A stretch of 55,009 nt of DNA, counting the filler, from Basidiobolus ranarum (Eukaryota): assembly GCA_040143965.1 (NCBI GenBank). It is 3 parts of 3 records of this genome, joined end to end, with 100 filler letters (N's around TTAATTAATTAA, not from the genome) between each part and the next. Parts side by side here need not be neighbours in the genome. Positions count along the whole stretch, not along the records: positions 18,424 to 36,721 come from JASJQH010000280.1; 2 more parts are not named here. One strand, given 5' to 3'. The translations under genes and the position numbers were made by a program. The notes beneath the pieces were generated by a model that saw only the letters and a program-made list of their open reading frames with translations, made no database searches and was not told the origin of the DNA. Shown here one piece after another: positions 18,424 to 51,250 of this stretch. The first letter of the stretch is position 1, and every line of letters starts with the position of its first letter.

Positions 18424-18857
18424 CTTCTTGTCTCTTTTCTTGTAAGCTTCCAATAAAGAAAGGTCAGAAGGTTCCTTTTCATCTCCAGAGACTACATCCC
18501 AAAGCTCCCTGTCTTCTAGCATGATTTGCATCTTGAACTCCCAGAAATTGTAATTTTCTCCATCAAGCTTTTCAACACTTGAGTTAATAAAAGTGGTAGT
18601 AGTGGTTTCTGTCATGCTGTAAAGGTTCAAACATGGGGCTCATAACCTATTGGGAAAATATGGGCTGTTTGGAGGAACTTTAGAAAAGTGGAGTTGTGAA
18701 TAGCTTTGTGAGATAATTATTTATTGTCCAGCAATAAAACATTTATATATCTTTTGGTGGAAATACAGAAAACTAACACTTGGGTTGTGTTCAGAACATC
18801 TGTGGGAGTAAAAGAGCTATTTTTGGGGAAATTTTGACAAGTTTGAAATTTCCAATA
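18424..18857 (-). mobile_element. Ty1/copia LTR retrotransposon 5' end: LTR (18857-18648), PBS (18647-18636), gag N-terminus
   Basis: gag KLDGENYNFWEFKMQIMLEDRELWDVV (DUF4219/Retrotran_gag_2-like); minus-strand PBS GGTTATGAGCCC directly after the LTR; ~210-bp LTR with imperfect inverted termini tattgggaaa...tttccaata. Confidence 0.88.
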
Positions 18858-19590
18858 TGGAATTGCTAATTCTCACTTTATTCACATATATATAATATAT
18901 GTTCTGATTTGCAGTTAAGTGATATTAGACTAAGTAATCTTAACTAACTTATATTTGATATATGAAATAGTTAGGTGTATAAAGATAGATATACAATATG
19001 ATAAAAACAATAAACTTCAACATGCCTTCTCTGGCCATGAACTGTTGAAGCTTGTCTAAAATAGGACTTTTTATATGTTGATGTAGGAACAGTCACCATA
19101 AATATATGGGACACCAGAGGCTAATTGATTTTTAAAATCAGTGTGCCTGTAATATTTACCTCCAACAAAGCTAAATTTATTTACACTGATTTTACTACTG
19201 TATGGTGTGACTCAAAATGATGAACTAGAGATTTTTCATTGCATGGAGTACATGGGGTATAAGCATGATGATGGGAACAAAGGGTATTCTTATGTCAGTT
19301 ATTGACAGTTTATTAAATCAATCGAAATTCCCAAAAGTAACTCGATAACTGAAAATAAGAGTGGCAAACAACTGAATCAAATCACGAGCTGAACTTTAAA
19401 TAGCTCCTTTCTTGCCATAATAATATTCAGGTATTTTAATCAGTTTGGAATATGAACACTGTTTCTTTCAAATCCATTGCATCAAAGGATTATGTAATGT
19501 AAGGTAACTAGTGGTAGTTGAGAGCAGCTCGCTACCTATTAGTACTTATTGAGTCGCAGATTTTTGTAAACTGATATAGTGCATAGCAAA

Positions 19591-19645
19591 TGTTGATTTA
19601 ATAGTATCCATGCTGTGTTGATTTAATAGTATCCATGCTGTGTTG
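19591..19645. repeat. Perfect 25-bp tandem duplication
   Basis: TGTTGATTTAATAGTATCCATGCTG x2 followed by TGTTG. Confidence 0.9.
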
Positions 19646-20046
19646 GACAGTCTGATATTGAATCATACATATTACACACCGGTGGTATCAAAAGAAAATC
19701 CTAGCCATTTAAGAAATGAAAAGTGAGTGGTAGTGTCATCATATAGCAATAGTAGATATATCATACCCTTTGTCCATTTAATGAGCAAAGGTAAAGTATG
19801 TGTTTTACTAATTTATATGTTGATATAACGTGATATTCCTTCGGTTGACCACATACACTTAAAACACGTTCTACTGAATAGGATGGATGAGGCTTTCACA
19901 TACCACACAAATCTTCACCACTTCCTAGTAGCTGACCCTAACTCTAACTCTAATGCTATTGATATTTTAAGCTATGATACTGGGATGATTTATTGCCATG
20001 TATATCTAATGGTATCTGTGGCATATTATCTTTTCAAGTTGCGGAA

Positions 20047-20877: not shown

Positions 20878-23424
20878 ATGCGCATCCATTCATTGGTAAT
20901 TTTTCTAATTGGTTTATCAACATACAATGAGGCAACGCTAATGAAGAGAACCTCGGTTAACATCAATCGCAATACTGATAGGAACGAAGCTTTCATCATA
21001 GAGTTGGAGGGCTTTAGTGAAGATACCGAGGAGAATATTCGAATGCAGGAGAGTCTCTTGGCCGAAATCAACTCAGCTGGTATACCTTTTGTCAAGCGAG
21101 TTAGTTTCTCTAATATCTTCAATGCTCTCTCTATGAACATTCAATCAAAGCACTTGGATTTCTTACATGAACTTCCTCAAGTTAAAGCCATATGGCCGGT
21201 AGTACTGCATCAAAGGCATGCTCCTATACCATCATCACGACCTCATGAGAGTCTCCCATCAAATCTGATAACGAATACTCATGTCGCTACTTCAGTTGAT
21301 AAAGTACATAGCCAGTTGAATAATACTGGTTCTGGTATCAAGGTGGGAATCATCGATTCAGGGGTTGACTACAGGCATCGAGCACTAGGTGGTTGTTTTG
21401 GCGTCAATTGCCGGGTTCAATACGGGTGGGATTTTTTAGGCGATAGCTTCAATGATGTGGCGGATGAAATGAAACCAGATCCAGATCCTATGGACTGTAA
21501 TGGGCACGGCACCCATGTAGCAGGAATTATTGGTGGTAAAGAGGAGAACTTCGTGGGCGTAGCTCCTGATGCTATTCTTGGAGCTTATCGTGTCCTTGAC
21601 TGCAATGGATTTGGACCTAGTGATGCTATTATTCAAGCAGTTGAAATGGCGATCAGGGACAAGATGGATATTATCAATCTATCTTTGGGGTTTAATAGCC
21701 CTTTTCCGGATGGTCTGGAGGCTAGGATTTTGGATCATGCCACTAGTATGGGAATACTAGTCATAGCAGCAGCTGGAAATGAAGGTATTGATGGTCAATG
21801 GACGATTGGAAGCCCTTCCACAGGCTCAAGTGTTATTAGTGTTGCATCCTTCGAAAGTCCATCTTATCCAGGAAAGAAGATAATACTAGACCAATTTCCA
21901 CAAAATGAAATCATCATTGGCCATGATGCAAGGTGGCCAATATCCTTTGCAAAAACTCGGATTATAGCTATCGAATATGACGGTTGTAATCCCACTCCTT
22001 CTAAACTGGATGGAGCAATAGTATTTATCAATTCAAATACAACAACTGACACCTGTTCAAGAGCCAGGAAACTTTTGGTCGCACAAATGGCTGGAGCAGT
22101 GGGAGTAATATTGGATTCTACATTAAATGAGCCCAATGTGCCGAATTCAGGGCCAGTTCAAATACCGATCATGGGCGTTGACGCAAAAGGCTCTTCCTAT
22201 CTTTTATCAAAGCTACTTCAAAATTCCAACTTGACCGTGACATCCTTAGGCGAGAATCAGCTGTATCCTAATCCGCATGCTAATAAACCATCTTCTTTTA
22301 GCTCTTGGGGGCCTGATTTCGAACTGAATTTAAAGCCAGATATTGCTGCTCCAGGCGGAAATATATACTCTACTTATCCATTAGCATTCGGAGGCTACGC
22401 ATATCTTAAAGGGACCTCTATGGCCGCCCCATATTTGGCTGGATCCAGTGCTCTCATCTTAAAGGCTCGTAGAGACGCTCAGATCAACTCTAGTATAGAT
22501 GCTCTTCGTGGTGTAATCATTTCATCTGGTGTACCAACTTTTGATAATGAGCAAACAAACCCTTATATTCCCGTAGGAAAACAGGGCACTGGTATAATTA
22601 ATGTTTGGAACGCGATTCATTCAACCACGCTGGTGAGCCCTCAGAAGATCTCTTTGAATGATACGATTAGAGCAAACTTGAAGCATGCCTTAACTATAAC
22701 TAATACTGGCGTCAAGGCTACCAGCTATAGAATCACCCACCACCCCTCTTTATCGGTGAATGGCTATGATACCCGTGGACTTCCTGTAAAGTCGCAAAAT
22801 TTCTTATTTTCCCAAGAGTTGGGACAAGTTTTTTTCGATACTCCGCAGGTTACCTTAGAACCAGGACAGTCAACTCAAATCACTTTGCAATTCGTACCAC
22901 CCACATTTACCAGCACTTCGCCATGGATTTACAGTGGATACATATTTGTATCTGATTCAGATGGAACTCCTCCTACCGTTGTTCCGTATGTTGGAGCAGT
23001 GGGTGATATGGGTAAACTCAGCTCGATCCATTCATCCGGGCTATACTCACCTGCATTAGTACACGATGGTTCGCTTAATCCTCAAAGAGCTGAGACAAGA
23101 ACGATTTATAATTTTAAGAAACAAGAAGCGGCCGCATTAATCATTCCACTGATGAATCCAACCAAAGGACTTTCTGTTTATCTAACCAACGATAAAAAGG
23201 ATGTTGTCGGTTGGCTCATATCGCAACCTAACATTGGTCGCTCTCTTGAAGAGCCATTGCAGTTAAATTTCACCGGAAAAGTGATATTCAATGATAGAGG
23301 AACTGAAAAGATCATCACCGTGGCTAATGGGCAATATCACGTTGTAGTGGAAACGTTGAAATCGTTTAGCAACGCTGAATCCGATATCTGGGTTTCTCCT
23401 TTAATTGACGTTATCAATTTTTAG
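20878..23424 (+). CDS. Secreted S8 subtilase with PA insert and Fn3_5-like domain (Vpr/C5a-peptidase/Pr1C-like), intronless
   Basis: Likely start MRIHSLVIFLIGLS (signal peptide); catalytic triad IIDSG, HGTHVAG, GTSMAAP; oxyanion AAAGN; PA-like AQMAGAVGVIL; FSSWGP..LKPDIAAPGG; C-terminal YSGYI. Confidence 0.93.
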   Translation: MRIHSLVIFLIGLSTYNEATLMKRTSVNINRNTDRNEAFIIELEGFSEDTEENIRMQESLLAEINSAGIPFVKRVSFSNIFNALSMNIQSKHLDFLHELPQVKAIWPVVLHQRHAPIPSSRPHESLPSNLITNTHVATSVDKVHSQLNNTGSGIKVGIIDSGVDYRHRALGGCFGVNCRVQYGWDFLGDSFNDVADEMKPDPDPMDCNGHGTHVAGIIGGKEENFVGVAPDAILGAYRVLDCNGFGPSDAIIQAVEMAIRDKMDIINLSLGFNSPFPDGLEARILDHATSMGILVIAAAGNEGIDGQWTIGSPSTGSSVISVASFESPSYPGKKIILDQFPQNEIIIGHDARWPISFAKTRIIAIEYDGCNPTPSKLDGAIVFINSNTTTDTCSRARKLLVAQMAGAVGVILDSTLNEPNVPNSGPVQIPIMGVDAKGSSYLLSKLLQNSNLTVTSLGENQLYPNPHANKPSSFSSWGPDFELNLKPDIAAPGGNIYSTYPLAFGGYAYLKGTSMAAPYLAGSSALILKARRDAQINSSIDALRGVIISSGVPTFDNEQTNPYIPVGKQGTGIINVWNAIHSTTLVSPQKISLNDTIRANLKHALTITNTGVKATSYRITHHPSLSVNGYDTRGLPVKSQNFLFSQELGQVFFDTPQVTLEPGQSTQITLQFVPPTFTSTSPWIYSGYIFVSDSDGTPPTVVPYVGAVGDMGKLSSIHSSGLYSPALVHDGSLNPQRAETRTIYNFKKQEAAALIIPLMNPTKGLSVYLTNDKKDVVGWLISQPNIGRSLEEPLQLNFTGKVIFNDRGTEKIITVANGQYHVVVETLKSFSNAESDIWVSPLIDVINF

Positions 23425-23807: not shown

Positions 23808-26655
23808 ATGCTTCGAAGTAGTTCTGAAAATGTGGTTGCACCAACGACAAATCGACCAATATCTCCGCTTACACGAAGCGTTACCGATAAAATTGAACCT
23901 GCTCATAATTCACTTACCACTTCTCAACTTGTTCCATCGAATGCAAGTGCCATTCCTGCGAATAACCTCTGGAGTGTACCGGACGGTAAATTACAAGTAA
24001 GGAAGTTACGAAATCTCACAAATGATGGCAATCAATTTATCTTTCACCATTGTAGTATATACTCAAATCTCTGTCATAGGTTAGGGTCATCAAAATATCA
24101 GTTGACCGACCAGTTCGACGACCATATGTCCGACTTATCTTGGGAGGTAAGTAATATGCTCTCGTTTAAAAAGTAATTTCTTAAAATGTATCACTTAATA
24201 TTACCTTCTTCTCATTCAGACCAAACATATCAAACTTCAATATCCGATTTGCCAGAAGGTTATTGGAACGAATGCTTTGAGTTCGACATAACTTTCCATT
24301 CACAGTTATTTGGAATATGTCAAGTAAGAACTCACTTTTCTTGAACTCATTAAAATGGAAATATTTCTCAATTACCCAATTACCCTTGTAGTTAGATCTA
24401 TTCGAATCCAACTTTATAATGCCTGATAAGCATATTGGAAGGGCTGAAATACCACTCACCCAATTAGAAGGGATGCCAGAACAATTTCATAGGTGAAGAT
24501 AAATAGTCCTTTATTCTTGCAGAGTACCTAGCGTTTAACGGATATTTTCACAATATTCATAGTTACTATGAATTATGGGATAAACGCTTATCACCAAGTA
24601 ATAGCACCTCGCTTAACGCCTGGAATATGAAATCAGTAAATCGCGGAGCAATCCAAGTAAGAATTAACTATCGATTTCAAGGGATCACCAACGAGGCATA
24701 CGATACCAATATGAAGGCAGAAAGCCTTGAATTAGACCGAAGCATTCATAATATCTTCCGAAGTAAAGTAGAATCAGGCTTAGAAGAAGAACATACAGAC
24801 GCAGAACTTCCTAAAGTCGAAGAAAAAGAAAGTAAATCAAGTCCATTAGATAAAGAAGAATATTTGTTCAGTTTGGATGAACCAGTGGAAGAGAAATCCG
24901 AAAAATCATTCACATTTCTTTTCGGTTTGAGTAAGCACTTAATCTCCGATCAAACAGCACAAGTCCTACGAGGAATCAGCAAATTGTCAGCTGCCTTTGT
25001 AGGAAGATTTAAGAACTGATATCACTTATGTCATGCTAAATTTAATCATCCTATTATTTTTGTCTACTCTCTAGGGACAAGGCCTGGTTGCATCCAACGT
25101 AGAGATTCTTGCTGGTCTGTTGATTTTAGAAAAGTTTTATCTAACTGTAGCTGAGTACGCTAAGCATCATGATTGAGACTCAATCCAAATTATCGACTGA
25201 TTATTCCTCTTGAACATGATTGAAATAGTGTAAAAACCAAGCTTTACGTTCAAGATTTGCACGATATCGAATACCCTTCCTACTTTTACAAATATGCTAT
25301 GGCGGCCTATGTAAGCAATAAGCAAGCGATATACATCGTTAAGCCATGCGATTCTTACCATTAGGATGGATTATAGGGATGGCGAGGACTGCATTTCTCT
25401 GGGAAAAAGAATGGTGTTGTAGCAGGTATTCAACATTAAAGTAGCCAAACTCCTTCACACATAATCTTTTACATTAAATATTCCATTGTCTATCACTAGG
25501 TGCTATTCGAAAAGGATCTGATGTCACCAGTATTTGTCAATTCTTAGCACTTCCACAAGAGGACCTTCTTGGCTTTGAGTTTCGTAGAGGACGAATTTTT
25601 CAACCAAGTTACTTCATTGCTTTAGATAGAAGTACAAATTCCATGGTCTTAAGCATAAGAGGAACAATGGTAAGCATTTAGTTGGATGAAAAGAGATCAT
25701 CTCATACTGGAGTATCTCATCATTGAATCCAATGAATTTCACTGTAGAGTGCTCAAGATACGCTAACGGATTTAGTGTGTGAATATCAACCTTGGAAAGG
25801 AGGAGTGGTTCATTCAGGAATGAAGTGTTCGGCTCAATTTTTCATGACAGAAATTATGCCTAAATTACTTACCCACATGGCTGAGCATCAAGTGACTAAT
25901 CTAAATATAGTTGGACATTCCTTGGGAGGAAGTACAGCTAGTGTTCTAACTATGATGCTCATGGATCATCTGGATAAAATACGTGAGGCTAGTACTCCAG
26001 GATTCCAAATTCAATGCTACGCTTACGGTCCCCCTCCATCGGTGTCATTAGACTTGGCCAAGAAATACGATGATGTGATCTATACCTATGTTAATGAGAG
26101 TGATATCGTCTGTCGACTCAGCTACGGTGGTATGTTGGATTTCAAAAGCATGGTACTATGTGCAGCAGAATCTTCCAGTAATCATCTAGAAGAGCTGTTG
26201 ACGTTCAGGGTAAGTGAATTCCCATCACCCATAAAATTGGATGTCACCATTTATTCCTATCGGATATTAGGGATCATCCAGTGTACAAAAGTATTCGGAT
26301 AAATGGAAGAAACGATTTGACTTCCTTATGGAACATCGTCGAAAGAGGGAGAAATTGGCCAAACCAAAGGTGGGTTAGGGTAAAGGGTATTTCCATTGAA
26401 TTCTTATTAACTGGGACTATTTCGATATGTTAGTTGTATATTGCGGGGACGGTATTCCATATGTATGCTGACCCTACTATCGCTGAACCAAATCGGACAT
26501 TGATGGAACGAACTGAGGTGGAAAGCTTCTCAGAACTGATAATTCGCAGTAGTATAGTCATGGACCATTTACCCAGTATGTATGAAGTTGCATTTCATCG
26601 AGCACGTGATACTTTGATGAGAGGAAAGGTAGGAACCCAGGAAAGAGAGGGATAA
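23808..26655 (+). CDS. C2-domain, class-3 lipase (DAG-lipase-like catalytic domain)
   Basis: About 11-12 exons. Spliced N-terminus gives C2: GKLQVRVIKISV..PYVRLILGDQTYQTS...WNECFEF...LDLFESNFIMPDKHIGRAEIPL. Lipase: LSIRGTMS, VHSGM, IVGHSLGG, CYAYGPPP, DIVCRLS, DHLP. Confidence 0.85.
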
Positions 26656-27599
26656 TTGATTCAGTTGTGATTCTTTTGGCTACTGTGGTATCCGTTATCA
26701 AGTGACCATTCCAGAAACGTTACATATAAATATACCAATAATGAACGAACGTTTTTGATCATCATTCATCTACTCTATAGATTTGTCTGCTCTATACATT
26801 GTAAACAACATGATGGTTTGGTATTTGGTATGCTCACTGTAAATGTTTTGCTTGAAGCTGAAGCTTAAAATATATAAACATTCTTAAATCTATTTTATCT
26901 GTGGGCTATTTTCGAATTAGATTTAATTCAGTTTCAGACAGAATAATAGGAACCTCACCATATACTCATACGTGAATTTCCCGCACTGTAAATAGTCCAG
27001 TTGCCACTTCACCCTACTCCTACGATCAGAGGTTAATAATAACCCCGTTGCAAAATATAACGTCATACTCTATACTATAAATAGCATCCTTTATTCCTCA
27101 AAGTGATTTGCAATATATCATCATAGCTCTGTGCTTAGAGGCTTGTATGGAAATGCTTTAGACATTAGGAGACAGTTAATACCATGAGAGATATTGCTTT
27201 TCACAGATATCATTCAAACAAAAATATTATATATTTCATGTAATGCTTTTTCAGCATCTGTAGTGGTAAAACTTCACCTAGATGCAGATAGCTTCCAAGT
27301 CTAGCTATATTCAAATATCCCAGAAATGCCCTTGATATAGTGCAGGTTATGGTTACAGAGCCACTTTGCATTAAGGAGAAATGGATATATTTTGAACTAA
27401 CCACATAGGCTCATATACATCACTCATTTATCGGGTTTTCCACTTCAAATACCAGTCCAATTATCATAAAGCTAGGTATGATACTTTTTTTTCTTTATCC
27501 AAGAAACCAGCTCAGGTAGTATGGTGTCTGATGCAGTAGTAAATATTGAGTTGTAATTATTTAAAGCTACTGCCATTGCATAATGTGAGGAGTACTAAC

Positions 27600-27928
27600 T
27601 GTTAAAGTATTTGGGAGCCTGTTGGAAGTGGTTTGGAGAATTAGAGGAATTGGTGGTTTTCACTTATTGATTTATTGAATACAAAGTTGACATTTATAGT
27701 TTTGTCAAGATGTAAACAAACTAACGTGTAGAATGTGTTAAGGAAGGTCCCAGGAACATGTGTGCAAAGTTTGGGGCTTCTAGCACAAGTTTGAAAAATC
27801 TATATATCTGAGAACTTCTAAGTAAATTCCAATTGAGAATAATGGATAATATCTTAGTAAATTATAAGATAACTAAGTACTAAGCTATATATGACTATAT
27901 TGGTGTTTAGGCAAAGCTAATTTCAACA
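27600..27928 (-). mobile_element. Solo copia LTR (329 bp) with 5-bp target-site duplication
   Basis: TG...CA termini flanked by CTAAC at 27595-27599 and 27929-27933; aligns end to end with the LTR at 35658-36004 that precedes a PBS and gag. Confidence 0.9.
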
Positions 27929-29724
27929 CTAACTCTACTAGTTGTATGTTACTTATCTTATAAATAATGGTTTCTTTGAAGCAAAAGTTAGTGAGGATAA
28001 ATCAAGGTGATACTGAATGCTGAGGGAATAAAAAAGAAAAGAATTTATGAATGAGTTGCGAGAGAAAATTATATACTTCAAAGAAATGCGATGGTTAAAA
28101 ATGGATTTGGGTTATGTAAAAATTGACAGTTCGCTACTTCCAGATAGTTCAGAAATTTCAGTACCGTCTGTGCTATGATTATAGATCAGCGGTTGTAACT
28201 AATGGTCCAATAAAAAGACTAGAAATATCTGACGCAACTATGATGTCTGAGCAGCTTCATAAATGGCAGTCATATGTTGTCATTGCTGATAATTGGCCCG
28301 TGAGATTGCTATATTTGTCAATGAAATTTGCCCGGGATATTTAGGGATAAGCATTGATATCGAAACCAGCTTTCTGCCCCTTAGCAGTGGTTCAATTCGC
28401 CCGAAATTGACTTGATCATCGGCAAACAGACCAGATTAATCGATTAATCTACTTTTAAAGACCGCTAAAGAAAGCTCAAACCAACATAAAAATGACACCT
28501 CTAATCCATTCAAGTATGAATCCTTTCATCATCCTTCTTAGCATGGTAATTAAGGACTCTCGATTGTTCTTGATTGGTCAAGTATTGTAAAACAAATTGC
28601 ATCATTGGGAGCTTAGCTTTAAGAAAATGGCTTATATAAACTGTGCTGGCTAGTTTCATGACCTTTGGATGACTATATATGGTACAGAGATTGTTATAGT
28701 TAACCAGTGCTCTGACCTTTACAACCGGATGTGCGAAAGGTCTACGTCATACGTCTCATGCGGATCTAATTTCAATGCTCGCGTACACAAATGGAACCTC
28801 GGTTGAATTATTGTGATTAAACTTGATGCGACCTTCGCATTGGGGGTAATCCTCCACTTCTGCATAATACGTCATGAATACTTCATTTTGACGTAATACT
28901 CATTCCAAATATAGGACGAATGAAGATTCGGTTATTTTAGCGCGGAAGTAACCTCCAACGAGATTCAAGGTAAAGGCGTGAAGAACTCATTTAAGTCCAT
29001 AATAGGGATAGTCCAACTAGTTAAAGCATTACACTACATAGCAATGACTACATTACTTACTGTCTACATAAATTCAACAGACAGCATTGGCTTATAATTA
29101 GGAAGATGTCAGCCCCTAAAACGAGTTGCGGGATTTATTGGTCTAGTATGAATTTGGAATTTATACATGGAAGGCGAAGGAATCTTCTGCCTCAGTATGA
29201 TGATCAGTACAAATTCATTTCAAGTGATTCACCATCGATTGCATAGCTTTGCATAACTATTGTTTCTAATCACAGAATCGGACACGGTCAGTTCATTCTT
29301 CTCTAAAATTCGATCCAATTCAAATATATCCCCGCGAATCTTCTAGATCATAAAAAGTTAGATTCCCCAGAATCCTACTGATTTCTCAAAATGGAAAATT
29401 AATACGAATCAATACAATCCTTTTTAGAGGGGACTTGAGCAACATCAATGTAGTGGATTGCTTGGTTTGATTACTTTCTGACGAAATCAGTCCAATTGGA
29501 GAACTGTTGCAGAGAGAGTATTTAAAGAACACTTGGTCACGATGGAGTTATATACTTCGTTCAATCTCCAAATCTTGTACTCACTTTGAAATCTTGGTTT
29601 CTAGAGTGCCTCCAACTTACGCCAAAAATCCTGACTTAAATCTCACCCTATTTGCCCTATTCCCCCTTCCCCTCCCTCCCCATTACCTCAAATATTTTTG
29701 GACCTTTTATCATAGTAAGTAGTA

Positions 29725-30738
29725 ATGCCTCCACATCGATACAAATTAACAGACGAGCAACGTAGAGATTTGATTTACTCTGTTGTCAACGAAGGTAAAT
29801 CTATCAAAGAGACAGCGGATGATTTTCAAGTTCCATACGTTACTGTATATGCAGTGATACATACATTTAGAAGAACTGGAAGAATCAACGCATTAAAGAA
29901 AGGTGGTGATCGTCGAAGTAAATTGAATCAAACACAGCATGATTGGATATCTCAAAGAGTTGATGACAAACCGGATATCACAGTCAGACAACTTACCCAA
30001 GAACTTTGCGAGGAGTTCAACGTCCAAGTATCATCCTCTACTATCTCACGAGTATTGGCCAAAAGAGGATTCACTGTCAATCGAATACCATCTGATGGTA
30101 TGGTTGAAAATCAGATACCTCAAAATGGTTTCGGAAGTCAGAAGGAAGCTTTTGTGAGACAAATGCAGGTCATTCAGACAGAATTCGAGAATCGTATCAT
30201 ATATCTTGGTGAGGCGGGATATAGTATTTACCTTAAGCAATTCTACGGCAGAACATCTCAAGAGTATCCCGAAGATGTTGGTGGTGAGTCTTCTAAGCGA
30301 AGTAGCCAGTGTGTTTCTGTCTATCTCGCATTGAAGGAAAACCAACTTCTGTACTCAGATATCCAAATTGGCTCATTCAATTCCAATGCCTTTGTATCAT
30401 TTATGAACGAGGTCTTGAGGAATCTTGGAAATATAAGCCATTGTCTTATTTATGCTGCATCTTGCACCGCTCATAGGATCATCATTGAAGACCTTGTTAA
30501 GGGTACCACTCACAAGTTACTTGCATTTCCATCTGATGGCTCCCTGTTGAACCCTCTCGAAGGAGGGTTTGTCTCTTTAAAAAAGAACTTGCGAAGGGAA
30601 AAACCGACGACTAAAGATACTCTGCTTATGAGATTTCAAGAGGCCTTAGACAATCTGACTACGGAGGATTGGACTAGGGGAACTCAAAATGGAATCCATC
30701 CGATCACTCAAGATGAAGGAGATAGTCAGATGAACTAA
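29725..30738 (+). CDS. Tc1/IS630 transposase-derived protein with intact HTH domains and degenerate DDE centre
   Basis: HTH1 (GKSIKETADDFQVPYVTVYAVIHTFRRTG), GGDRRSKL linker, HTH2 (PDITVRQL...VSSSTISRVL); core IIYLGEAG, LIYAASCTAH, LNPLE. Confidence 0.85.
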   Translation: MPPHRYKLTDEQRRDLIYSVVNEGKSIKETADDFQVPYVTVYAVIHTFRRTGRINALKKGGDRRSKLNQTQHDWISQRVDDKPDITVRQLTQELCEEFNVQVSSSTISRVLAKRGFTVNRIPSDGMVENQIPQNGFGSQKEAFVRQMQVIQTEFENRIIYLGEAGYSIYLKQFYGRTSQEYPEDVGGESSKRSSQCVSVYLALKENQLLYSDIQIGSFNSNAFVSFMNEVLRNLGNISHCLIYAASCTAHRIIIEDLVKGTTHKLLAFPSDGSLLNPLEGGFVSLKKNLRREKPTTKDTLLMRFQEALDNLTTEDWTRGTQNGIHPITQDEGDSQMN

Positions 30739-33242
30739 TACATCATTTGATGCACATTTTCGTACCTTTCGATATTCATAAGGGATTCTTCACGGTAATT
30801 CATTTATAATTATATCGCTTTGATTACGACACTTCGGACCCCACTAAACCATTGGGAATCGGCATCATCATCTATACAAGTATGTACAAAGACATAGTAT
30901 GTAAGGCATCTATAGACCTTTGTTGTAACCATATAATATTGCTTTTTAGAAAGTACTTTGGTCCCCTTCGAATTGTATATTATTATGTATGGCTACTAAC
31001 ATAATTAAGTAATCAAATACTTCCCAAGCAACAAGCTAGATTAGTGGGTCGAAATAAACAAATATTTTGTGAACATCGTGGAAATTATGTCCCTCTCTTT
31101 CTATATTAGAACTCATTTAACCTCCATACTCCACCATGGAAGTCGCGTTGAAGTGTCACCTAAACCTATTAGGCGAGAATACTCGAGCCATGTTCTTCTG
31201 ACGAGTCATTAGATAGATTATGTGCATAATGGCTACCTCATAACTAGTTTTTTTTGGTATTATTTGGTGGCTAACAAGGTAACTTATTAGGGAGGCAATT
31301 ACTAAATATGGAATTGCATGGAGTGTTTATTCAACATTCGCTCATGACACTACAGCGATGGCTGTCATGGTACTTGATATCTGTTTGTTATTACATATGT
31401 ATATTCATCATTGTAGACCACCTGTACTCTATATATAACCATAAATTGATTGGTAAGTGCGGCACGTGACCTATCTCTCTCTTAATTGAGTTGTAAGTTA
31501 CTTCCCATACAAACGTCATTTTCACTATCAAGTTCGTATTCAATACCGCCATAAGATAATTCCAATCCAATCTCAATTGGAACTTAAATGATCCTAATGG
31601 GTATTGGTATTATTGGGTGATGCTTATGACCTTTCAAATAATCTCAAATTTTCAAGTACAATGGTGAGTATTGAGATAGAAACATGGACTTTCTGCTAAA
31701 GAGGAATTGGGTTCTTAATCTCTGTAAGAATTCAAGCCTGCTACCAAACTCTCATATCATTTGAACATTGGCTTCATTAATAATGCCTTGGTATCTTTTA
31801 TTAATAATCATATTACAATAAAATCATACAAAACTGACAAGATATTTAAGCTTATTGTTAAAATACTTTTGAGTTTCTTGTCAGGCATCAATTCTTTTTA
31901 GTCTAAATTTTCCAATATTACTGTTTCTACTTTGGTATGAGCTAAATGCAGATATTTGGATTTTCCTGATATTTTTCATTTTTTGTTTCTTGTCACTTCC
32001 AAGCATCTTAGCTCCTGGATAAATATAGCTTGTAAGAAATAATGCTTGCTAGAACAGATTTTAATTGGGTATTTCCTTTCAGCCAAAAAAAAGAACTCGT
32101 AGCTTACTAACTGATTATATGATGCTTCTCTTTACTTAATAATAACTACCTTGTACTAATTAGCTTCCCGTGAATTCAAAAACCTCTACTTTATGCAGTG
32201 CCAACATTCATATTATCTTAATTGGTATTATAATGTATCTAGTATCTGGCTTCCTCACCCAACCAATATATAACTTGCTAGCAATACATCATTTCCTCTT
32301 GTCAATGAAGAAATTGAGCATCCATAAAATTATTTTGTAATCTAAGCATTGTAGTAAGTTGAAGGCTCATATATAGAAACCTAGTAGCATGTACTACCAA
32401 AGTGATGCTACAATGCTATTTCGAAAAATCCATATACAAAAATAGATTCAATTATTAGTTATACATAAGAAGTCGAATAAATTCAGTACTTTTACAATTA
32501 TAGCTAAAAGAATACTCTTGTCAGGTCACATAAACCTTAAGATTTCTTTAATCAATCGGAAAAAAGAACTACCCTTAACCCCCTGCCATGAAATAGGCTT
32601 TCCTAAATTCACCGATCTTGAGAAAATATTATGTGGTTGGTCAATTCATGGGTATGGGTATGTATATATGACTAACTGTCTTCTTACTTCCCACATTATT
32701 CCGATATTACTTCACTTGTGATTTGGTTTCAAGGAAATCAACGGAGAATTTAGAAATCTGGTCAATGATATTACTTGATGAAGTAAAGGTATATTTCCAA
32801 ATCGATTTCATACATCTATATTCATATTCACTCGTAGACGTGGTGAGGATGTCGGATAATGTAATTAGCCAGACGAGATGAAGCATATACTATAAAATAT
32901 AATTTCATATAGTAAAATATATGGTGATACGATATTTAACTCTGACATTGTTATGATTGATAACTAAAGTAGAAAAGTAAATCCTAAAGCTTGGTGGCTT
33001 CACATCTTCTTAAGCCAATACGCTTCAAGGTGACACATAAGTTAGCTACACGTATTAATCAAAGAAATGAGTTTGCCTGAGGTCCTTGGTAAAAATAGGG
33101 AGAGCGTTTGGTAATTCATTCCCAATGAGAACCTCGGAATTCACTGAATTTCTCAGAGTTTCAAAGGTCGATATTAAAACTCCAAAGGTATATATATATA
33201 AACCAGCCCTCCCATAACTCCATATCTCTGTTATTTCTTGAA

Positions 33243-34995
33243 ATGGTACAAGTATTGTCAACACCAAGCGAGGAGGATTCATCAATCGTCACGGTAGTCA
33301 GCAACTACACTCATGATTCAACAGAAGTGGCAGGCGAACGTTGGAGAAAGCCGGAACACTCCTATATCAAGGAAGAAAAAGATAAGAGACTGACAGAAGA
33401 TAAACTCAGTGAGGGTATACCTGAATTTTCAAAGCGTAAGAAGACTTTGATCGTGTTTGTGGTTGCATTAGCAGGGCTAGTAGGGCCTATAGCAACGAAT
33501 ATTTTCGTGCGTATGAGAAAATGTTACCGTTATTCCTATATCTCACATCTCTCATTTTATCACACTATCTTAGGTTCCATCGCTTGATATCATTCGTAAG
33601 GAGTTTGACATGTCCGAGTCGGTTGGAAATTTGACGGTCACAGTGTTCATGGTATTTCTAGGAATCGCGGTATGGTCATCTACTCAGCCTCATCCTCTAT
33701 ATTCACTAACTATTGATCAGCCTTTGTTCTGGGGTCCAGCCTCAGATAAAATTGGAAGAAGAGTGATTTATTTGATTTCTATCTCGATTTTCATTGTTGG
33801 AAGTATAGCTTGTGCTTTCTCAGTTAACGGCGCAATGATGATCGGTATGCGTGGAATACAAGCTATTGGTGCTTCTGCAGTACTTGCAATCGGTGAGAAT
33901 TGATTGGCTTCCTATTACACAGTAAATGGCTAACGCCTCTATTAGGAGCTGGTACAATCAGCGACATATTTGAGCCATTAGAGCGCGGTACCGCTTTTGG
34001 ACTCTATTTCATTGGACCATTACTTGGTCCTGTGTTGGGTAAGTTTATCGCTTTGCCTGGACTTTTGTGACAGTCAACTAAGGGTTCGTTAGGGCCGGTC
34101 GTTGGAGGAATACTTGGAGACAGGTTCGGATGGCGAATGATATTCTTTGTGTTAGCTGGGTTCGGAGCATTTGTATTGGTGTCAATCATCTTAACCTTGC
34201 CAGAAACCATGCCTGAAATACGCATGCGAAACTACGCACGTAAAAACCATTTACCTGTACCTAGAATAACTAAACAAGTCAGCATAATACAGCCTCTGCT
34301 TTTGCTACGGTATCCATCGGCCTTGATGGTTATTCTTTATGCTTGTTCTATTCTAGCATCAGTATATAGCTATACCACTTCGGTACCAATCATATTTCGT
34401 CCATCGTATCATCTAGATACCACTCAGGTGGGCTTGTTATTTTTAAGCTCAGGCATAGGAAATATCTTTGGATCGATCATTGGAGGAAGAATTGCCGATC
34501 ACTCGCTCAGAAAACTGAAATCCAAATCCGAAACCCGCATTCCTCCTGAAGCTCGATTCAATCTGGTTTGGTTTGGCTCCACATTATTTCCATTAAGCCT
34601 GTTGTGCTATGGTTGGTTGATAAATTTCAGTGTCAAAATAGAAGGACCTCTAGTGATGATGTTTCTCAGTGAGTAGACTATGTTTGAATGTAAATATGTA
34701 AGATGACAAGAGATTAATCTTAATCACAGTTGGATTTAGCTCTACCTACGTTTTCTCTAACACGTCAACCTACATCGTGGACATTTTTCCAGGATTTGGG
34801 GCTAGTGCTACGGCTGCAAATAACTGCTTACGGTATTTAAGTGGAGCTATAGCATCTGGTATCGTCAGCCCGTTACTTGAAGTAATGGGACCTGGTTGGC
34901 TGTTTACTGGATTGGCAGTTCTTACCATTGCAATGGATGGGATATTATTCATTGTGTATCGATGGGGCCATAAATGGAGGCCGACATTGGCATAG
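33243..34995 (+). CDS. MFS drug:H+ antiporter (DHA1, QDR-like)
   Basis: Six exons starting 33243-33506, 33574-33669; motifs PLFWGPASDKIGRR, GAGTISDIFEPLERG, GPLLGP.LGP..GG, WR..F, LPET, PEARF. Confidence 0.9.
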
Positions 34996-35508
34996 CCAAC
35001 GTTATCTTAGTGATAATCCTAATAGTTGATATTTATAGATATATTTAACTCACTCCAATTATATAAACATCATACAAAGAAAGATGCGTAGTACTTTGTA
35101 GTTATACTATGCCATAGACTGCTAAAAACTAATATGAAATCAGTCTCAAAAGAAAGTGTATGATTGCCCATCCAAGGTAACATATATACTCTTTGTATTA
35201 ATACTTAGCACTAAATATCAGATTCTGGGCACTTCACTATATGTCGCCATTTTATTTCGGTAATATGGTGAAAGATATTCCAAGAATATTTTCTTTATAA
35301 TCCTTTTGACTTTAGTACGTAGTTGGCGCATTGTTATGATTTGGAATATATGTAGCGTATGTTGCAAATAAAAAAATATGTAAACATGACTAAGTTAATG
35401 CTACTATAACTTATTGAGCTGTACTTGTTATTGTTCTTGCAAATCATTGGCATAATTCATACATCAAATAGTATATCTGCTGGTAAATTCTCACTCTATT
35501 ATTACTCT

Positions 35509-35570
35509 TGCTGAAATAAGCATTGCGTAAGCACCTACATAATCATACATAGCTTAGTATTTAGTTATTC
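35509..35570 (+). mobile_element. Diverged fragment of the same copia LTR 5' end
   Basis: tgctgaaataagcattgcgtaagcacctacataatcatacatagcttagtatttagttat matches the first ~60 bp of the 35658 LTR. Confidence 0.7.
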
Positions 35571-35657
35571 CATAGGGTTACTGACCCCCTTCCTGCGGAA
35601 CCTAGCAATCTAGTAGCTTATGCTTTGATGATTGGTAGAATATTTAGTATTTAAATG

Positions 35658-36170
35658 TGTCGAAATTAGCATTGTCTATGCACCTATATAATCATATATA
35701 TCTTAGTACTTAGTTATCTTCTATTGAATTAAGATATTACCCATTATTCTCAATCAGAATTTACTTAGTATATTGACACAAACCTGGAAGTTCCCAAATA
35801 AGTAGATTTTTCAAACTCGTGCTAGAAGCCCCAAACTTTGCACACATGTTTCTGGGACCCCTCCAAGCACATTCTCCATGTTAGTCTGCTTACATCTGAC
35901 AAAACTATATATGTCACCTGAATAATCAATAAATTAATGAGAGAAAACCACCAATTTCTACAATTCTCCAAACCACTTCCAACAGACTCTTAAATACCTT
36001 AGCAGATTGTGAGCCCCAAGCTTGCACTCTCTGTAAGGTCAACTTCTCATATCTCTGAAACTTTTCCCTCTTCTGATAAATTGGATGGAACCAATTATCA
36101 ATTTTGGAAAATGAAAATGCTGCTGCAAGAAAAAGGACTTTTGGACACTATTGTGGGAGAAGAAAACAAC
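35658..36170 (+). mobile_element. Degenerate copia 5' end: LTR (35658-36004), PBS (36005-36016), gag stub
   Basis: LTR homologous to 27600-27928; PBS GATTGTGAGCCC (decayed GGTTATGAGCCC); gag KLDGTNYQFWKMKMLLQEKGLLDTIVGEE without a start codon. Confidence 0.85.
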
Positions 36171-36721
36171 ACAAAACCATCTTTGTCATGAATCCAATCT
36201 TGGCATACTCATCCACCACATATGGAACTCTATATTATTCAATTATGACATCATATCTGCTGTGCCATCCTTTCTTGGCAATCTTGTGCTAGTTCATCCA
36301 GGTGATCTTATATGGAAGTCATGTTCATTGGAACATTCCCTGAAAGCTAACCAATCATGTCATCCCACATATAATATATTTCCACCAAGACCTTCCATGG
36401 AAGGTTACCTGATCATCCTTACTTCATCCCCCTTTGTATTGGTCCTTGTAGTCCCCAACACCCTGACACTTGAACTTGCCAAGGTATATTCCCTATTCAG
36501 TGTATAATATTTCACTCTGCAATATCTATATAGGCTTCTTGTTTTCCTTGATCAGACCTCACTCTGATCAATGCTAGTTATCAATAAAGATTCTTGCCAA
36601 AGTATCTTCCTTTTCTTTTCGTTTTTTTTTTGGCTTTGTTATAAACACCAAATTACTCTCTTTTTTATTTGCTTTTTTTTTTTTTTTACTTTCTTTTTCC
36701 TTTTCTTTTTTTTTACTGTCT

Positions 36722-43565: not shown

Positions 43566-45181
43566 ACCGTGTATGAATCTACCATTTTCCAAGTACTTCA
43601 ATCATTTGTTACCACTACACTCTTCCAAGTCCTCAGTTTTATCGATTTTCCAATGCTTGTTTTATATAGATTGCTTATAGGAAATCCCTAGATTTCAACA
43701 TACACATTAACAGCCTGATTATCACTCTCCCTACCGTAGATATTAAATACTCTACTACCTCTTTAGCTGTACACATAATACATTTTAAACTTGTTAGACC
43801 TCGTACTTTTAAAGCCTCCTAAGTCTACTGCCAAGTAGAGATTAGTGCTATATGGTTCGTTAAAGCTAATGACCTTATGGTGGCCTTAATTCTACTAAAG
43901 CAAACGGGTCATGATTATATAATGAACTAATATTTGAGTTTCTATCGGAAGTCGATAGGCGCTCCATGTATGGATGAAACACTCAATTGAATAACTGTAT
44001 CATTGTGTAGAAAAGTTGGGAAAAAAGTGAGGTAGGCAAGTATCAACTTGTTAAATCATGTTCATTGATGATGAATTCAAACTGATGAATCGATTTTGGA
44101 GGGCTGTATTTTTACGAGGTTAATTGTCTCACGAGAAACCAATTAGTAAGTCTTAGACAATAATAACAGTCACATGATATTCGGCAACACTTGTCTGGTA
44201 TTGGGTCATAATTGATCCTTAGTGGTGAGATCTGCGTCGTTTATCACATCCTCGACAACTTCACTTTTGGAGTATTCTTACCAAAAGTAGCGCCATTATA
44301 CTTCAGTTTATTAACATACTCTCCCCTTCTGATAGGTTCGAATGTTACCATGACTTCTCTAATTCTAGAGAAACCACTACTGTCACACCCACGAAGGAAG
44401 TACAGCGTTTTCGAGTAGTTCACCACAGATAAAATCGAAAACCTATTGTTTCCAATATGCCCTCATTCTGAGAGCGTGACGATATGGCGGAATACTCGGG
44501 AGAGAACTTGAATGATTGTTTTTTCATACAAGATAGCTGAGTTGCACGTTATGTTCAGCCTCTGATCATCTTTGGAGATATTCACAGTCCTATTTTGTGA
44601 GCGTAGAAACCTCTCTAGAGTACAGAATGAACAACTTGCTTCCATGGAGATTATCGGAATATTTAGAAACTCTCTCTCCCTACTCTCACATTTCCTATAT
44701 CCCCTGGGTATCAAATCATGTAGGCGTAGAAGAACGTTTGGAGGGGAGATTAACGAAATTTTCAGTATCAACCTATAACAAATATATATACTGGACAATA
44801 TCCATATTCCCAAAAGAAATGGGAGAAAGTCACCTCCTAATGCTTCGGATCATTTAACCAAAGCAAATATGCGTTCAAGCCCGATTTAGACACGGTTCTC
44901 CAGAATATTGAAGGAATCAACGAATCTATTGAAATAGAGTTCCATTCATTCTTTACTCAGATCTGCATACTGATGTAGATGTCAAGAGGGATTTGAAACA
45001 ACGTTTTGGATGCAGTGTGTTGAACACTGAGTTTCAACTTGTGGACTTCTAAACTGATCGAATGATCTCTGTTGCTATCTCTAGTGATAGACTCGGCTCT
45101 ACTTAGACTATAAATACCCATCCACTAACATTCATGCATTTCACTCAGTACAGGCCATTCTCCTCTCATCTGCATCCAGTC

Positions 45182-45784
45182 ATGAAGTTCTTCAACACCA
45201 CCTCCATCGCAATCGTTGCCAGCTTGATGATAGTCACACCAACTGTGACTGCTACGCCACTTCGATTGGAACAGAAGGATGTGGAAGCTATGGATGTAGA
45301 TGGGCTTCTGGGTGAATTCGATCATGATCCCGCCTTTAGAGATGAACTCATTGGGGGTAAACCAAACGTGGTCTCTAAATTAGTAGGTGGGGGAATCAAA
45401 GGGGCTCTCGTTGATAAGATCTTACATCGTGTTCTACGCTCATACGGGAACAAACTTGATATAGACTTGAGTGGCCTTTTCGATGGTGTAATCGATTCTG
45501 AAGGACCAAATGTCAAAACTATTCTACAGTCGGTCAGCAGGAGTCGTCGACTATCAAAATACTCCGATACGATCGAAAAGCTGGGTGGTATTGAGCATAT
45601 CACTACTGTTTTGGATCGATTTGGCGGTATCAAGTCTATCCTAGGCTACGGTAAAGGTCGCAGTAAAGGAAAGAAAGACGACAGCACAAAGAAGGAAGGA
45701 AAGAAGTCTGACAGCACGAAGAAGAACGAAAAGAAGTCTGACAGCAAGGGAAAGAAGCAAAAGAGCTACAAGAAATCCCGCTAA
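45182..45784 (+). CDS. Secreted hypothetical protein, paralog A, with Lys-rich repeat tail
   Basis: Signal peptide MKFFNTTSIAIVASLMIVTPTVTA; TATAAATA at ~45109; intronless; homologous to 46503-46988. Confidence 0.8.
   Translation: MKFFNTTSIAIVASLMIVTPTVTATPLRLEQKDVEAMDVDGLLGEFDHDPAFRDELIGGKPNVVSKLVGGGIKGALVDKILHRVLRSYGNKLDIDLSGLFDGVIDSEGPNVKTILQSVSRSRRLSKYSDTIEKLGGIEHITTVLDRFGGIKSILGYGKGRSKGKKDDSTKKEGKKSDSTKKNEKKSDSKGKKQKSYKKSR
45671..45760 (+). repeat. Three imperfect 30-bp coding repeats (KKDDSTKKEG/KKSDSTKKNE/KKSDSKGKKQ)
   Basis: Units start at 45671, 45701, 45731 and share GACAGCA. Confidence 0.8.
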
Positions 45785-46502: not shown

Positions 46503-46988
46503 ATGAAATTCATCAGCTCCGCCTCTATCGCTGTCATTGTTGGTTTGTTGGTGGTTACACCAGCAGTGACTGCCATTCCACGCCAACTGGCACTAGAGGA
46601 TATGGAAGTGGTGAATGTAGATTCTCTCATTAATGAACTTGATAACGATGTGCTTTTAAGAGATGATATTTTTGGAGCTGGAGGAAAAGAGACTCTGATC
46701 TCCAAGTTAGTTGGTGGAGGATACAAAGGAGCTATTGCCGATCAAGTAGTTCATAGTTTCCTGAATAAGTTTGGGGATCAATTGGGGGTAGATTTGGCTG
46801 GTCTAGTGGATGCTATCATTAATACCAATGGACCAGACACTCAAGCAGTTCTTGACGCCTTAAAGAAGAGCAAGAAATTCATCCCTCTCTCCAAAATATT
46901 AGAGAGCTTTGGAGGTGCCCCCGAGATTGATCGCGTAGTTGAATCAGTGAAAAAATTGCTCGGCAGTCGCTTAAAACACAAGGCGTAA
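46503..46988 (+). CDS. Secreted hypothetical protein, paralog B
   Basis: Signal peptide MKFISSASIAVIVGLLVVTPAVTA; shares SKLVGGG.KGA, DL.GL.D..I...GP and E..GG with paralog A. Confidence 0.8.
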   Translation: MKFISSASIAVIVGLLVVTPAVTAIPRQLALEDMEVVNVDSLINELDNDVLLRDDIFGAGGKETLISKLVGGGYKGAIADQVVHSFLNKFGDQLGVDLAGLVDAIINTNGPDTQAVLDALKKSKKFIPLSKILESFGGAPEIDRVVESVKKLLGSRLKHKA

Positions 46989-50223: not shown

Positions 50224-50974
50224 TCAACATTCCGAAAAAGCTGTTCATCATCCATCCAACTTTTGCTATCACCGCATTTTTTAGTCAATTGCGTTTTGTA
50301 TTCAATCTTTTATTTTTAGACTAATCTATTTTCTCACCTGGACAAATCCATTCTAGCTGGGTAGATTGAGTTACTCTGCACCTTTCAAAGTCCATCTTCT
50401 TAATCTTTGCCATTCACTTTGTTTCGATTGACCTATCATTGTTTAAGCGTGTAATACTTCATTGTTCAAATTTGACAGATCTCACTGGAATATCATTATC
50501 AATATACTTGTTTACTCAACTTTTTGGATAGCGCCATACTATGATTGAAGCTCCTAGCGGAGTTTTCTCCTATTGGCTAGATTATGGTGAAATTTACGAG
50601 TTCATGGTTACAATTGGATATGGTAATTGTATCAAGTTATGATCTAAGAATCAGCTTTAGAGGATTTGAGTTATACAATTTTTTCGTACGTATTTGTGGA
50701 GAGTTGGAAGCACTTAGGATAATTAGAAGCACATACTATTGCAACACATTTAAAAAGTATTTATTAGGTGAAAAGTCACAAACACACAACTTTAGGGTAT
50801 GCCAAATATTTCAACATTTCAGTTCTTCCTTTACTTCACCATCTTTTACCAGTTTTTATTATTTAGTGCAATGAACTTAATCCAGTATCTTGCTCTCGAA
50901 TTAAGAGAATTGACTTTCAGCAAGTCAAATATGGCAGTTGACACATCATCAGCTAAGCATAATACTGTTCAAAG

Positions 50975-51250
50975 TGTTATAGTATTTCGGGAGTTTGTTA
51001 GAAGTAGTTTGGAGAACTGGAAGAATTGATGGTTTTCACTTATTGATTTTTTGAGTAGAAAGTTGACATTTATAGTTTTGTCAAGATGTAAACAAACAAA
51101 CGGGTAGTATGTGTTAAAGAAGGTCCCTGGAGCATGTGTGCAAACTTTGAGGCTTCTAGCACAAGCTCTGAAATATATATATCTTCAAAATTCCAAGTAA
51201 ATTCCTCTTGAGATATCTTAGTTCAGTCACTATTCTATGATAATTCAACA
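50975..51250 (-). mobile_element. Diverged solo copia LTR, same family as 27600-27928
   Basis: Shared blocks AAAGTTGACATTTATAGTTTTGTCAAGATGTAAACAAAC, CATGTGTGCAAA, GGCTTCTAGCACAAG; TG..CA ends; internal deletion; no TSD recognisable. Confidence 0.85.

Follow-up and report, generated by a model that had tools for sequence, protein, structure and literature searches.

Domesticated IS630-Tc1-mariner (ITm) transposases are well documented in animals (SETMAR, the CENP-B relatives, Drosophila genes), as are pogo-derived ones in fission yeast. In the genome of the gut fungus Basidiobolus ranarum (assembly GCA_040143965.1), an open-reading frame (ORF) within the 55,009 nucleotide stretch of DNA analysed here (the window) reads as a complete transposase with a broken catalytic triad, raising the question of whether it is the relic of a mobile element or a gene that the host has kept. 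An earlier note on this DNA had favoured co-option by the host, as a transcription factor or a repressor of transposable elements (TEs). We conclude that the ORF is very probably a domesticated transposase, one of a kept pair, and we place at roughly two in three the probability that its product is a non-cutting, sequence-specific DNA-binding regulator under strong purifying selection, one of two paralogs, with binding and regulation being predictions.

An intact transposase derivative between two host genes

Translation of the window gives a stop-free, single-exon ORF of 337 aa at 29725-30738 on the plus strand, just downstream of an in-frame TAA (29716-29718), with a class 3 lipase gene on one side and an MFS transporter gene on the other. 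It is an ITm transposase derivative comprising two helix-turn-helix domains (HTHs) and an RNase H fold, with the following features:

29570..29724 (+), likely 5' untranslated leader, pyrimidine-rich in part; contig 14 of run X3 continues from 29570 to 29849, inside the ORF, without a listed joint
29725..30738 (+), full-length ITm (DD34E-type) transposase derivative; single-exon ORF, 337 aa; Pfam HTH_32 and DDE_3, NCBIfam NF033545
29752..29877 (+), first three-helix HTH, aa 10-51; predicted helices 10-22, 27-34 and 38-51, pLDDT ~95
29902..29922 (+), GRPR-like (AT-hook-type) linker GGDRRSK between the HTHs; identical in the paralog and homolog P0002
29929..30063 (+), second three-helix HTH, aa 69-113; predicted helices 69-81, 87-98 and 104-113
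30064..30087 (+), inter-domain linker strand, aa 114-121, apparently where the KKPLLS/WVPHEL segment lies (role of that segment given in PMC4820933)
30190..30696 (+), RNase H-like (DDE) domain, fold retained and catalytic site degraded; structural match to the Mos1 catalytic domain
30205..30264 (+), clamp loop (first half) preceded by strand 1, aa 161-180; 19/20 identical between paralogs
30208..30210 (+), first catalytic position, Gly162, motif IYLGEAG; family Asp replaced, Gly common to the paralog
30454..30459 (+), second catalytic position, Ala244-Ala245, motif YAASCTAH; without Asp, paralog Asp at the Ala244 column
30559..30561 (+), third catalytic position, Glu279; retained
30739..31006 (+), likely 3' untranslated region; contig 11 of run X2 spans 30599-31006 across the stop

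The earlier note had described an uninterrupted frame with a pyrimidine-rich leader, and both are present, the 337 codons being open throughout and the leader lying at ~29650-29690. The acidic C-terminal extension it also described is instead a tail of normal family length (21 residues past position 316; the 120 homologs that align at this point have a median of 22), which has three acidic residues in its last 20 and differs from that of the paralog.

Matches to HTH_32 (aa 40-111, E 1.9e-10) and DDE_3 (PF13358; aa 189-300, E 5.9e-07) both exceeded the Pfam cut-offs, whilst the NCBIfam IS630 model NF033545, matched over aa 13-311, fell short of its cut-off (88.5 bits against 100). Section 12 of PMC13469147 describes a GRPR-like motif of ITm transposases, of the kind seen between the two HTHs. 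DDE_1, HTH_Tnp_Tc5, HTH_ABP1_N and the PAX paired domain (PF00292) were all absent from the 12 families that Pfam listed at E up to 1. The same library does detect the first three of these in locus L035 (G000:C6962), where a pogo/CENP-B-like gene (3-845 and 1108-1683, minus strand) carries them in separate frames, owing to introns or breaks; this locus has a host-like CpG ratio of 0.71 and is a second candidate for domestication, of the Abp1/CENP-B kind.

A structure model built on a 23-row alignment (mean pLDDT 79.5, pTM 0.52) comprises two three-helix HTHs and an RNase H fold. Its closest structural matches are Mos1, Metnase and Sleeping Beauty, the top Foldseek match being Mos1 (4u7b, E 3.6e-12), and VIA-align superposed it on the Mos1 catalytic domain (4mdb) with Z 14.8 and an rmsd of 3.4 over 175 aligned residues. 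A sequence search of the PDB returned Sleeping Beauty alone (E 0.17), and in the ESM Atlas the protein fell with DDE_3 clusters at 0.96-0.97, with no cluster of its own.

Two of three catalytic residues are lost

The first Asp of DDE enzymes binds both metals. In a MAFFT alignment with 150 homologs, in which the catalytic columns were scored, this column (162) is Asp in 130/150, Gly in 3/150 and a gap in 6/150, which bears out the loss of the first Asp previously read from IYLGEAG. The second position is placed differently by two lines of evidence: MAFFT aligns the family Asp (125/150 homologs) to Ala245, whilst Ala244 is favoured by where the predicted strand (E240-243) ends and by the D..E spacing of the family, which is 34 residues in 77 of 92 homologs in which both motifs could be matched. 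Residues 243-246 include no acidic residue, and the second Asp is absent in either one-residue register, in agreement with the earlier reading of YAASCTAH. Glu279, at a column that is Glu in 118/150 homologs, is retained at the expected spacing of about 33-34 residues past the second position.

The only other copy in the genome, on contig C1558 (G000), is an open frame of 334 aa sharing 71-73% protein and 72% DNA identity with the ORF. It also has Gly at the first catalytic position, and its second Asp is probably retained, since an Asp precedes its Glu by 34 residues. Both paralogs are without the PYSP-loop residues Tyr271 and Pro273 and, in the MAFFT alignment, without the DN pair, and of 47 family-conserved columns the ORF copy keeps 27 and the C1558 copy 31. 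Among the hallmarks of an ITm element, the ORF thus displays the bipartite HTH with GRPR-like linker and the RNase H-like fold; an intact DD(34)E triad (here Gly162, Ala244/245, Glu279) and dispersed near-identical copies are absent.

Two single-copy loci without mobile context

Genome searches, which score the best candidates only, returned the same two loci with three queries: the ORF protein (two matches of three scored), homolog P0002 (two of four) and a 4.7 kb DNA query (two of two). Read depth in the DNA run X1 was 13.2-14.7 over the ORF and 13.2-13.6 on both flanks, and the flanks are single-copy in this depth from 28191 to 35400, as they are in the genome search; the sole change listed by X1 within the ORF, at 30411, is synonymous. 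No inverted repeat rose above shuffles within 1.5 kb on each side of the ORF (the best, with 16/20 matches, was reached by 17/20 shuffles) or near the C1558 paralog, where 510 nt upstream were covered. The near-identical copies flanked by terminal inverted repeats (TIRs) that would have spoken for a mobile element were therefore not found, and the impression by eye that the ORF has no TIRs held up around it.

The CpG observed/expected ratio is 0.72-0.73 in the ORF and 0.88 in the paralog. Four host ORFs range from 0.71 to 0.95 and four CpG-poor tracts of the window from 0.13 to 0.30, so that the contrast drawn earlier between a CpG-rich ORF and the TE relics around it is upheld (0.73 vs 0.13-0.30). 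The CpG-poor tracts at 18424-20000 (0.21), 26800-27600 (0.30) and 35400-36721 (0.13) are probably transposon relics.

A separate repeat of 329 nt lies at 27600-27928, with TG...CA ends, CTAAC on both sides and a CpG ratio of 0.14. Its relatives occur at 35657-36005 (minus strand) and 50972-51213 and in loci L003 (325-636), L027 (3861-4039) and L030, and its summed X1 contig depth runs to hundreds of thousands, against 13.6 on the flanks, which makes it a member of a very abundant family, present also in the organism coded B (below). The repeat was considered as a MITE target and rejected, as its ends and 5-nt direct repeat resemble a solo LTR. Elsewhere in the window are an intronless 848-aa S8 subtilase with PA and fn3_5 domains (20878-23424, plus strand) and two adjacent small ORFs (45134-45784 and 46503-46988, plus strand) with signal-peptide-like starts, which look alike by eye. 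The RNA polymerase I subunit gene in the window clusters with KAK9765335.1 of B. ranarum.

Purifying selection between the paralogs

Over 329 codons the paralogs differ at saturated synonymous sites (pS 0.742) and at few non-synonymous ones (pN 0.166), giving a dN/dS of 0.055 with a bootstrap upper bound of 0.119, a rough ratio, being from one pair with saturated synonymous sites. The value is far below 1, and not the neutral one that the earlier note had named as refuting its reading; it is measured against a paralog with which the loss of the first Asp is shared. Constraint is uneven along the protein. The two HTH regions (aa 1-64 and 65-122) are each 91% identical, with dN/dS of 0.032 and 0.024 respectively, whilst the RNase H domain (aa 156-300) is 67% identical (pN 0.23 vs pS 0.77). 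In 20-residue blocks, identity is highest at 41-60 (0.95) and 101-120 (1.00, 20/20), where helix 3 of both HTHs and the linker strand lie, and at 161-180 (0.95, 19/20), which runs from strand 1 halfway into the clamp loop; it is lowest at 121-140 (0.43) and 241-260 (0.42). Within the RNase H domain, conservation is weakest around the second Asp and the PYSP loop.

A quick tree of 61 rows (the two paralogs and 59 of 150 representatives, being those among P0002-P0079 of 300-400 aa, with no named reference transposases) placed the paralogs in one clade (SH-aLRT 100) and resolved no sister group. Faster evolution of the ORF copy, suggested by its branch in this tree (0.37 vs 0.028), was rejected on a site count of 37 vs 40 (p 0.82). 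The common ancestor of the pair was most likely already catalytically dead, because Gly at column 162 is so rare among homologs and further active-site losses are shared, and the constraint would therefore postdate catalysis.

The neighbouring lipase gene (24000-26734, plus strand) is intron-rich, with nine GT..AG introns spliced in runs X2-X4 (also L027). It too has one close paralog, on contig C2145 (78%, pS 0.73, similar to the transposase pair), with a collinear layout that is 68% alike over 2 kb. Contig C2145 ends in the last exon of the lipase, and C1558 (5.5 kb) ends 510 nt upstream of its ORF; the contigs numbered beside them (C1557 and C1559, C2144 and C2146) were tried as neighbours and rejected as unrelated scaffolds. 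A collinear duplicate block of lipase and transposase derivative is possible, the saturation making the age match a weak one, and the flanks of the two transposase paralogs have no clear similarity. PMC10079182 calls Basidiobolus genomes regionally duplicated, B. meristosporus has 22.6% duplicated BUSCOs (PMC10799480, Table S1), and the passages of the main text of PMC7466969 do not mention genome duplication.

Relatives and transcription

Runs X2-X4 come from one study of an organism coded B, with no library type on record and with contigs that carry neither strand nor level. They contain spliced RNA, since their lipase contigs skip GT..AG introns. All three have contigs over the ORF, at a depth of ~3-4. 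Gap-free contigs within it (30266-30574, 30403-30677 and 30371-30603) differ from it at 17/309, 19/275 and 11/233 positions, so that these partial contigs from the one study are 93-96% alike; the lipase exons differ to a similar degree (23/443, 6/171 and 18/462, or 3.5-5%). The contigs reaching the flanks of the ORF are the two given in the feature list, and the bins 28191-29333 and 31239-35400 have no cover in X2-X4. An 81%-alike piece in X3, with 56/291 differences to the ORF and 51/291 to the C1558 paralog, fits the paralog. These low-depth contigs suggest that orthologs of both paralogs are transcribed in a relative ~5% diverged. A run search listed no RNA run for the ORF.

At E up to 0.001, a collection of 5.8 billion proteins gave no homolog among 1315 near-length, 495 shorter and 7999 longer candidates, the search of the longer ones being weak, and 1.84 billion representative proteins included no ortholog, the best outside match being 29% identical over the full length. 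Proteins of B. meristosporus are present in the collection, without an ortholog match. Neither paralog is itself in the protein collection, so annotation misses both of them, whilst three of five neighbouring ORFs looked up are present. A metagenome scan returned 593 pattern matches, none of which was confirmed.

A likely DNA-binding regulator and its alternatives

The absence of near-identical TIR-flanked copies, the low dN/dS and the transcript-like ortholog contigs of a related organism together support co-option by the host. Of the two roles named in the earlier note, that of a regulator is the one we retain, and TE repression is the weaker because no cognate element was found. In the history that we propose, an ITm element reached fixation, with loss of its ends and of its first Asp. 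A segmental or genome-scale event, which may have taken in the lipase next door, would then have duplicated the gene, and the second Asp would later have disappeared from the ORF copy as well. Target recognition would fall to both HTHs together with the GGDRRSK linker, at a site derived from the ancestral element's terminal repeat. PMC4820933 places the clamp loop between strands 1 and 2, where the structure model also has it, and describes how in Mos1 and Sleeping Beauty it pairs across the dimer with the partner's linker. The corresponding segments here (linker strand, aa 114-121; clamp loop, aa 161-180) are near-invariant between the paralogs while the active-site face drifts, and from their position the dead RNase H domain may serve as a dimer scaffold through them. 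Dimers so bound might change transcription or chromatin at scattered sites, as the transposase part of SETMAR does at Hsmar1 repeats. We regard as speculative, and on balance doubtful, the wider proposal that the paralogs form a transcription or chromatin factor family of Basidiobolus making, heterodimerising through the old transpososome surfaces around a dead RNase H scaffold and binding relics of the vanished transposon's ends genome-wide.

The best surviving alternative, though an unlikely one, is a domesticated transposon repressor acting in genome defence, in which the dead protein would occupy cognate ITm ends or form mixed dimers that poison the cognate transposase. Conservation is strongest in the DNA-binding module and at the likely dimer surfaces, as a dominant-negative protein needs, and the genome is rich in decayed transposons; nevertheless, no cognate family was found among the best-scored candidates. 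The genome holds ten DDE_3 matches, of which the eight besides the two paralogs are short fragments. Seven of these belong to one decayed Tc1-type family whose members are 80-94% alike (L007, L008 and L011-L015, on G000 contigs C505, C8261, C1148, C10433, C9310, C2812 and C7511) and end in ...ACTG followed by TA, and its terminal 30 nt match at most 17/30 near either paralog. The CpG ratio of its loci falls from ~0.6 to 0.04, with two loci at 0.04-0.06, as would be expected if the copies had been methylated and deaminated over time, and the family is the contrast case for how real ITm relics appear in the B. ranarum genome. The eighth fragment (L009, G000:C7328) is a broken relic from the broad IS630-like DD34E group to which the ancestor of the ORF also belonged, and is only 24% alike to the ORF over 58 residues.

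Improbable in turn is a residual nuclease or DNA-repair activity, as in the transposase domain of Metnase/SETMAR, in the paralog at least. The whole RNase H fold has been retained under selection, Glu279 is present in both copies and the paralog probably keeps its Asp-34-Glu, against which stand the Gly at the first position of both copies, the missing second Asp of the ORF copy and the weak conservation around the second Asp and the PYSP loop.

Even less credence attaches to a dead accessory ORF of a larger mobile element, under selection for the element and not for the host, although PMC13469147 describes such an ORF (IS630-like, with a homeodomain-like part and under purifying selection) in active fungal ITm elements. 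The single-copy flanks, the absence of TIRs and the lack of clear similarity between the flanks of the paralogs all argue against it, and the survey of ORFs in the window found no second transposase between the lipase and the MFS gene.

A reading of both copies as neutral relics, each from a different transposon family and with a low dN/dS left over from its mobile past, is equally improbable: values of dN/dS below 1 are indeed seen between families of active transposon lineages and no annotated ortholog was found in the protein collections, but the shared Gly and further active-site losses point to a dead ancestor, both frames are intact despite saturated synonymous sites, and neither copy is CpG-depleted as true relics in this genome are.

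Comparison with known systems

The nearest relatives by architecture are IS630-like DD34E transposases (P0002, ENA; CAG8803766.1, Cetraspora pellucida; KAF7684942.1, Cucumispora dikerogammari), which share with the ORF a length of ~330-340 aa, two HTHs, the GRPR-like linker, a strand-1 motif ending in EAG, the YGR motif, LNPxE and the 34-residue spacing. The ORF is at most 29% identical to them over its full length and differs in the loss of the first Asp (in both paralogs) and of the second (in the ORF), in having no TIRs and in being present as one copy per locus.

The PAX paired domain is of ITm origin. The analogy drawn earlier with PAX and CENP-B holds in so far as CENP-B and Abp1, which are pogo-derived, are also host DNA-binding proteins of ITm origin (for CENP-B, PMC10799480 and PMC7325037); given the absence of their domains and of the paired domain from the ORF protein at E up to 1, it is an analogy only. 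The transposase part of SETMAR is a closer one, because the ORF keeps the whole catalytic fold. SETMAR/Metnase is likewise a full-length domesticated ITm transposase with its DNA-binding domain kept, and its fold matches the model (3k9j, Z 14.7, rmsd 3.4, 176 aligned). SETMAR, however, is a mariner-type fusion with a SET domain, found in primates, with thousands of known TIR targets (it acts at ~5000 Hsmar1 repeats according to PMC9062482), whereas the ORF is stand-alone and DD34E-type, with targets that are only predicted.

Among Drosophila genes, CG4570, cag, toy and CG14478 resemble the ORF, as PMC13548663 describes them, in low copy number, absence of TIRs and purifying selection that is strongest on the DNA-binding module; they keep either the DNA-binding or the catalytic module, whereas the Basidiobolus pair keeps both domains with a broken triad. 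An intact ORF at low copy number without TIRs or target-site duplication, as here, is listed in section 20 of that paper as a sign of domestication, together with purifying selection after the loss of mobility, which is seen here in the dN/dS of 0.055 between paralogs sharing the first-Asp loss (one pair, saturated). A fungal counterpart, Dici CDS3 of Diutina catenulata, is according to PMC13469147 also an IS630-like ORF (347-398 aa) with a degenerate triad and its HTH part kept, but it lies inside active, multi-copy, TIR-flanked elements beside a working transposase, whereas the ORF has single-copy flanks and no partner transposase.

A literature search, with subscription papers mostly outside its scope, found no report of a domesticated ITm transposase in Basidiobolus and no stand-alone, full-length ITm domestication in Zoopagomycota. 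The sections seen of PMC5751038 treat the transposon content of Basidiobolus and name no such gene. A fungal co-option screen (PMC10799480) included B. meristosporus, which, among the 30 of 54 DDE_3 places seen, is named in the genome list of its workbook only.

The pair is a further case of a known process, transposase domestication, and reveals no new mechanism. Neither paralog appears in the public protein collection, so genes of this sort may be discarded as transposons as a matter of routine. With a common loss of the first Asp and differing states of the second, the two paralogs make a natural experiment, and a map of the transposase surfaces that a host has kept.
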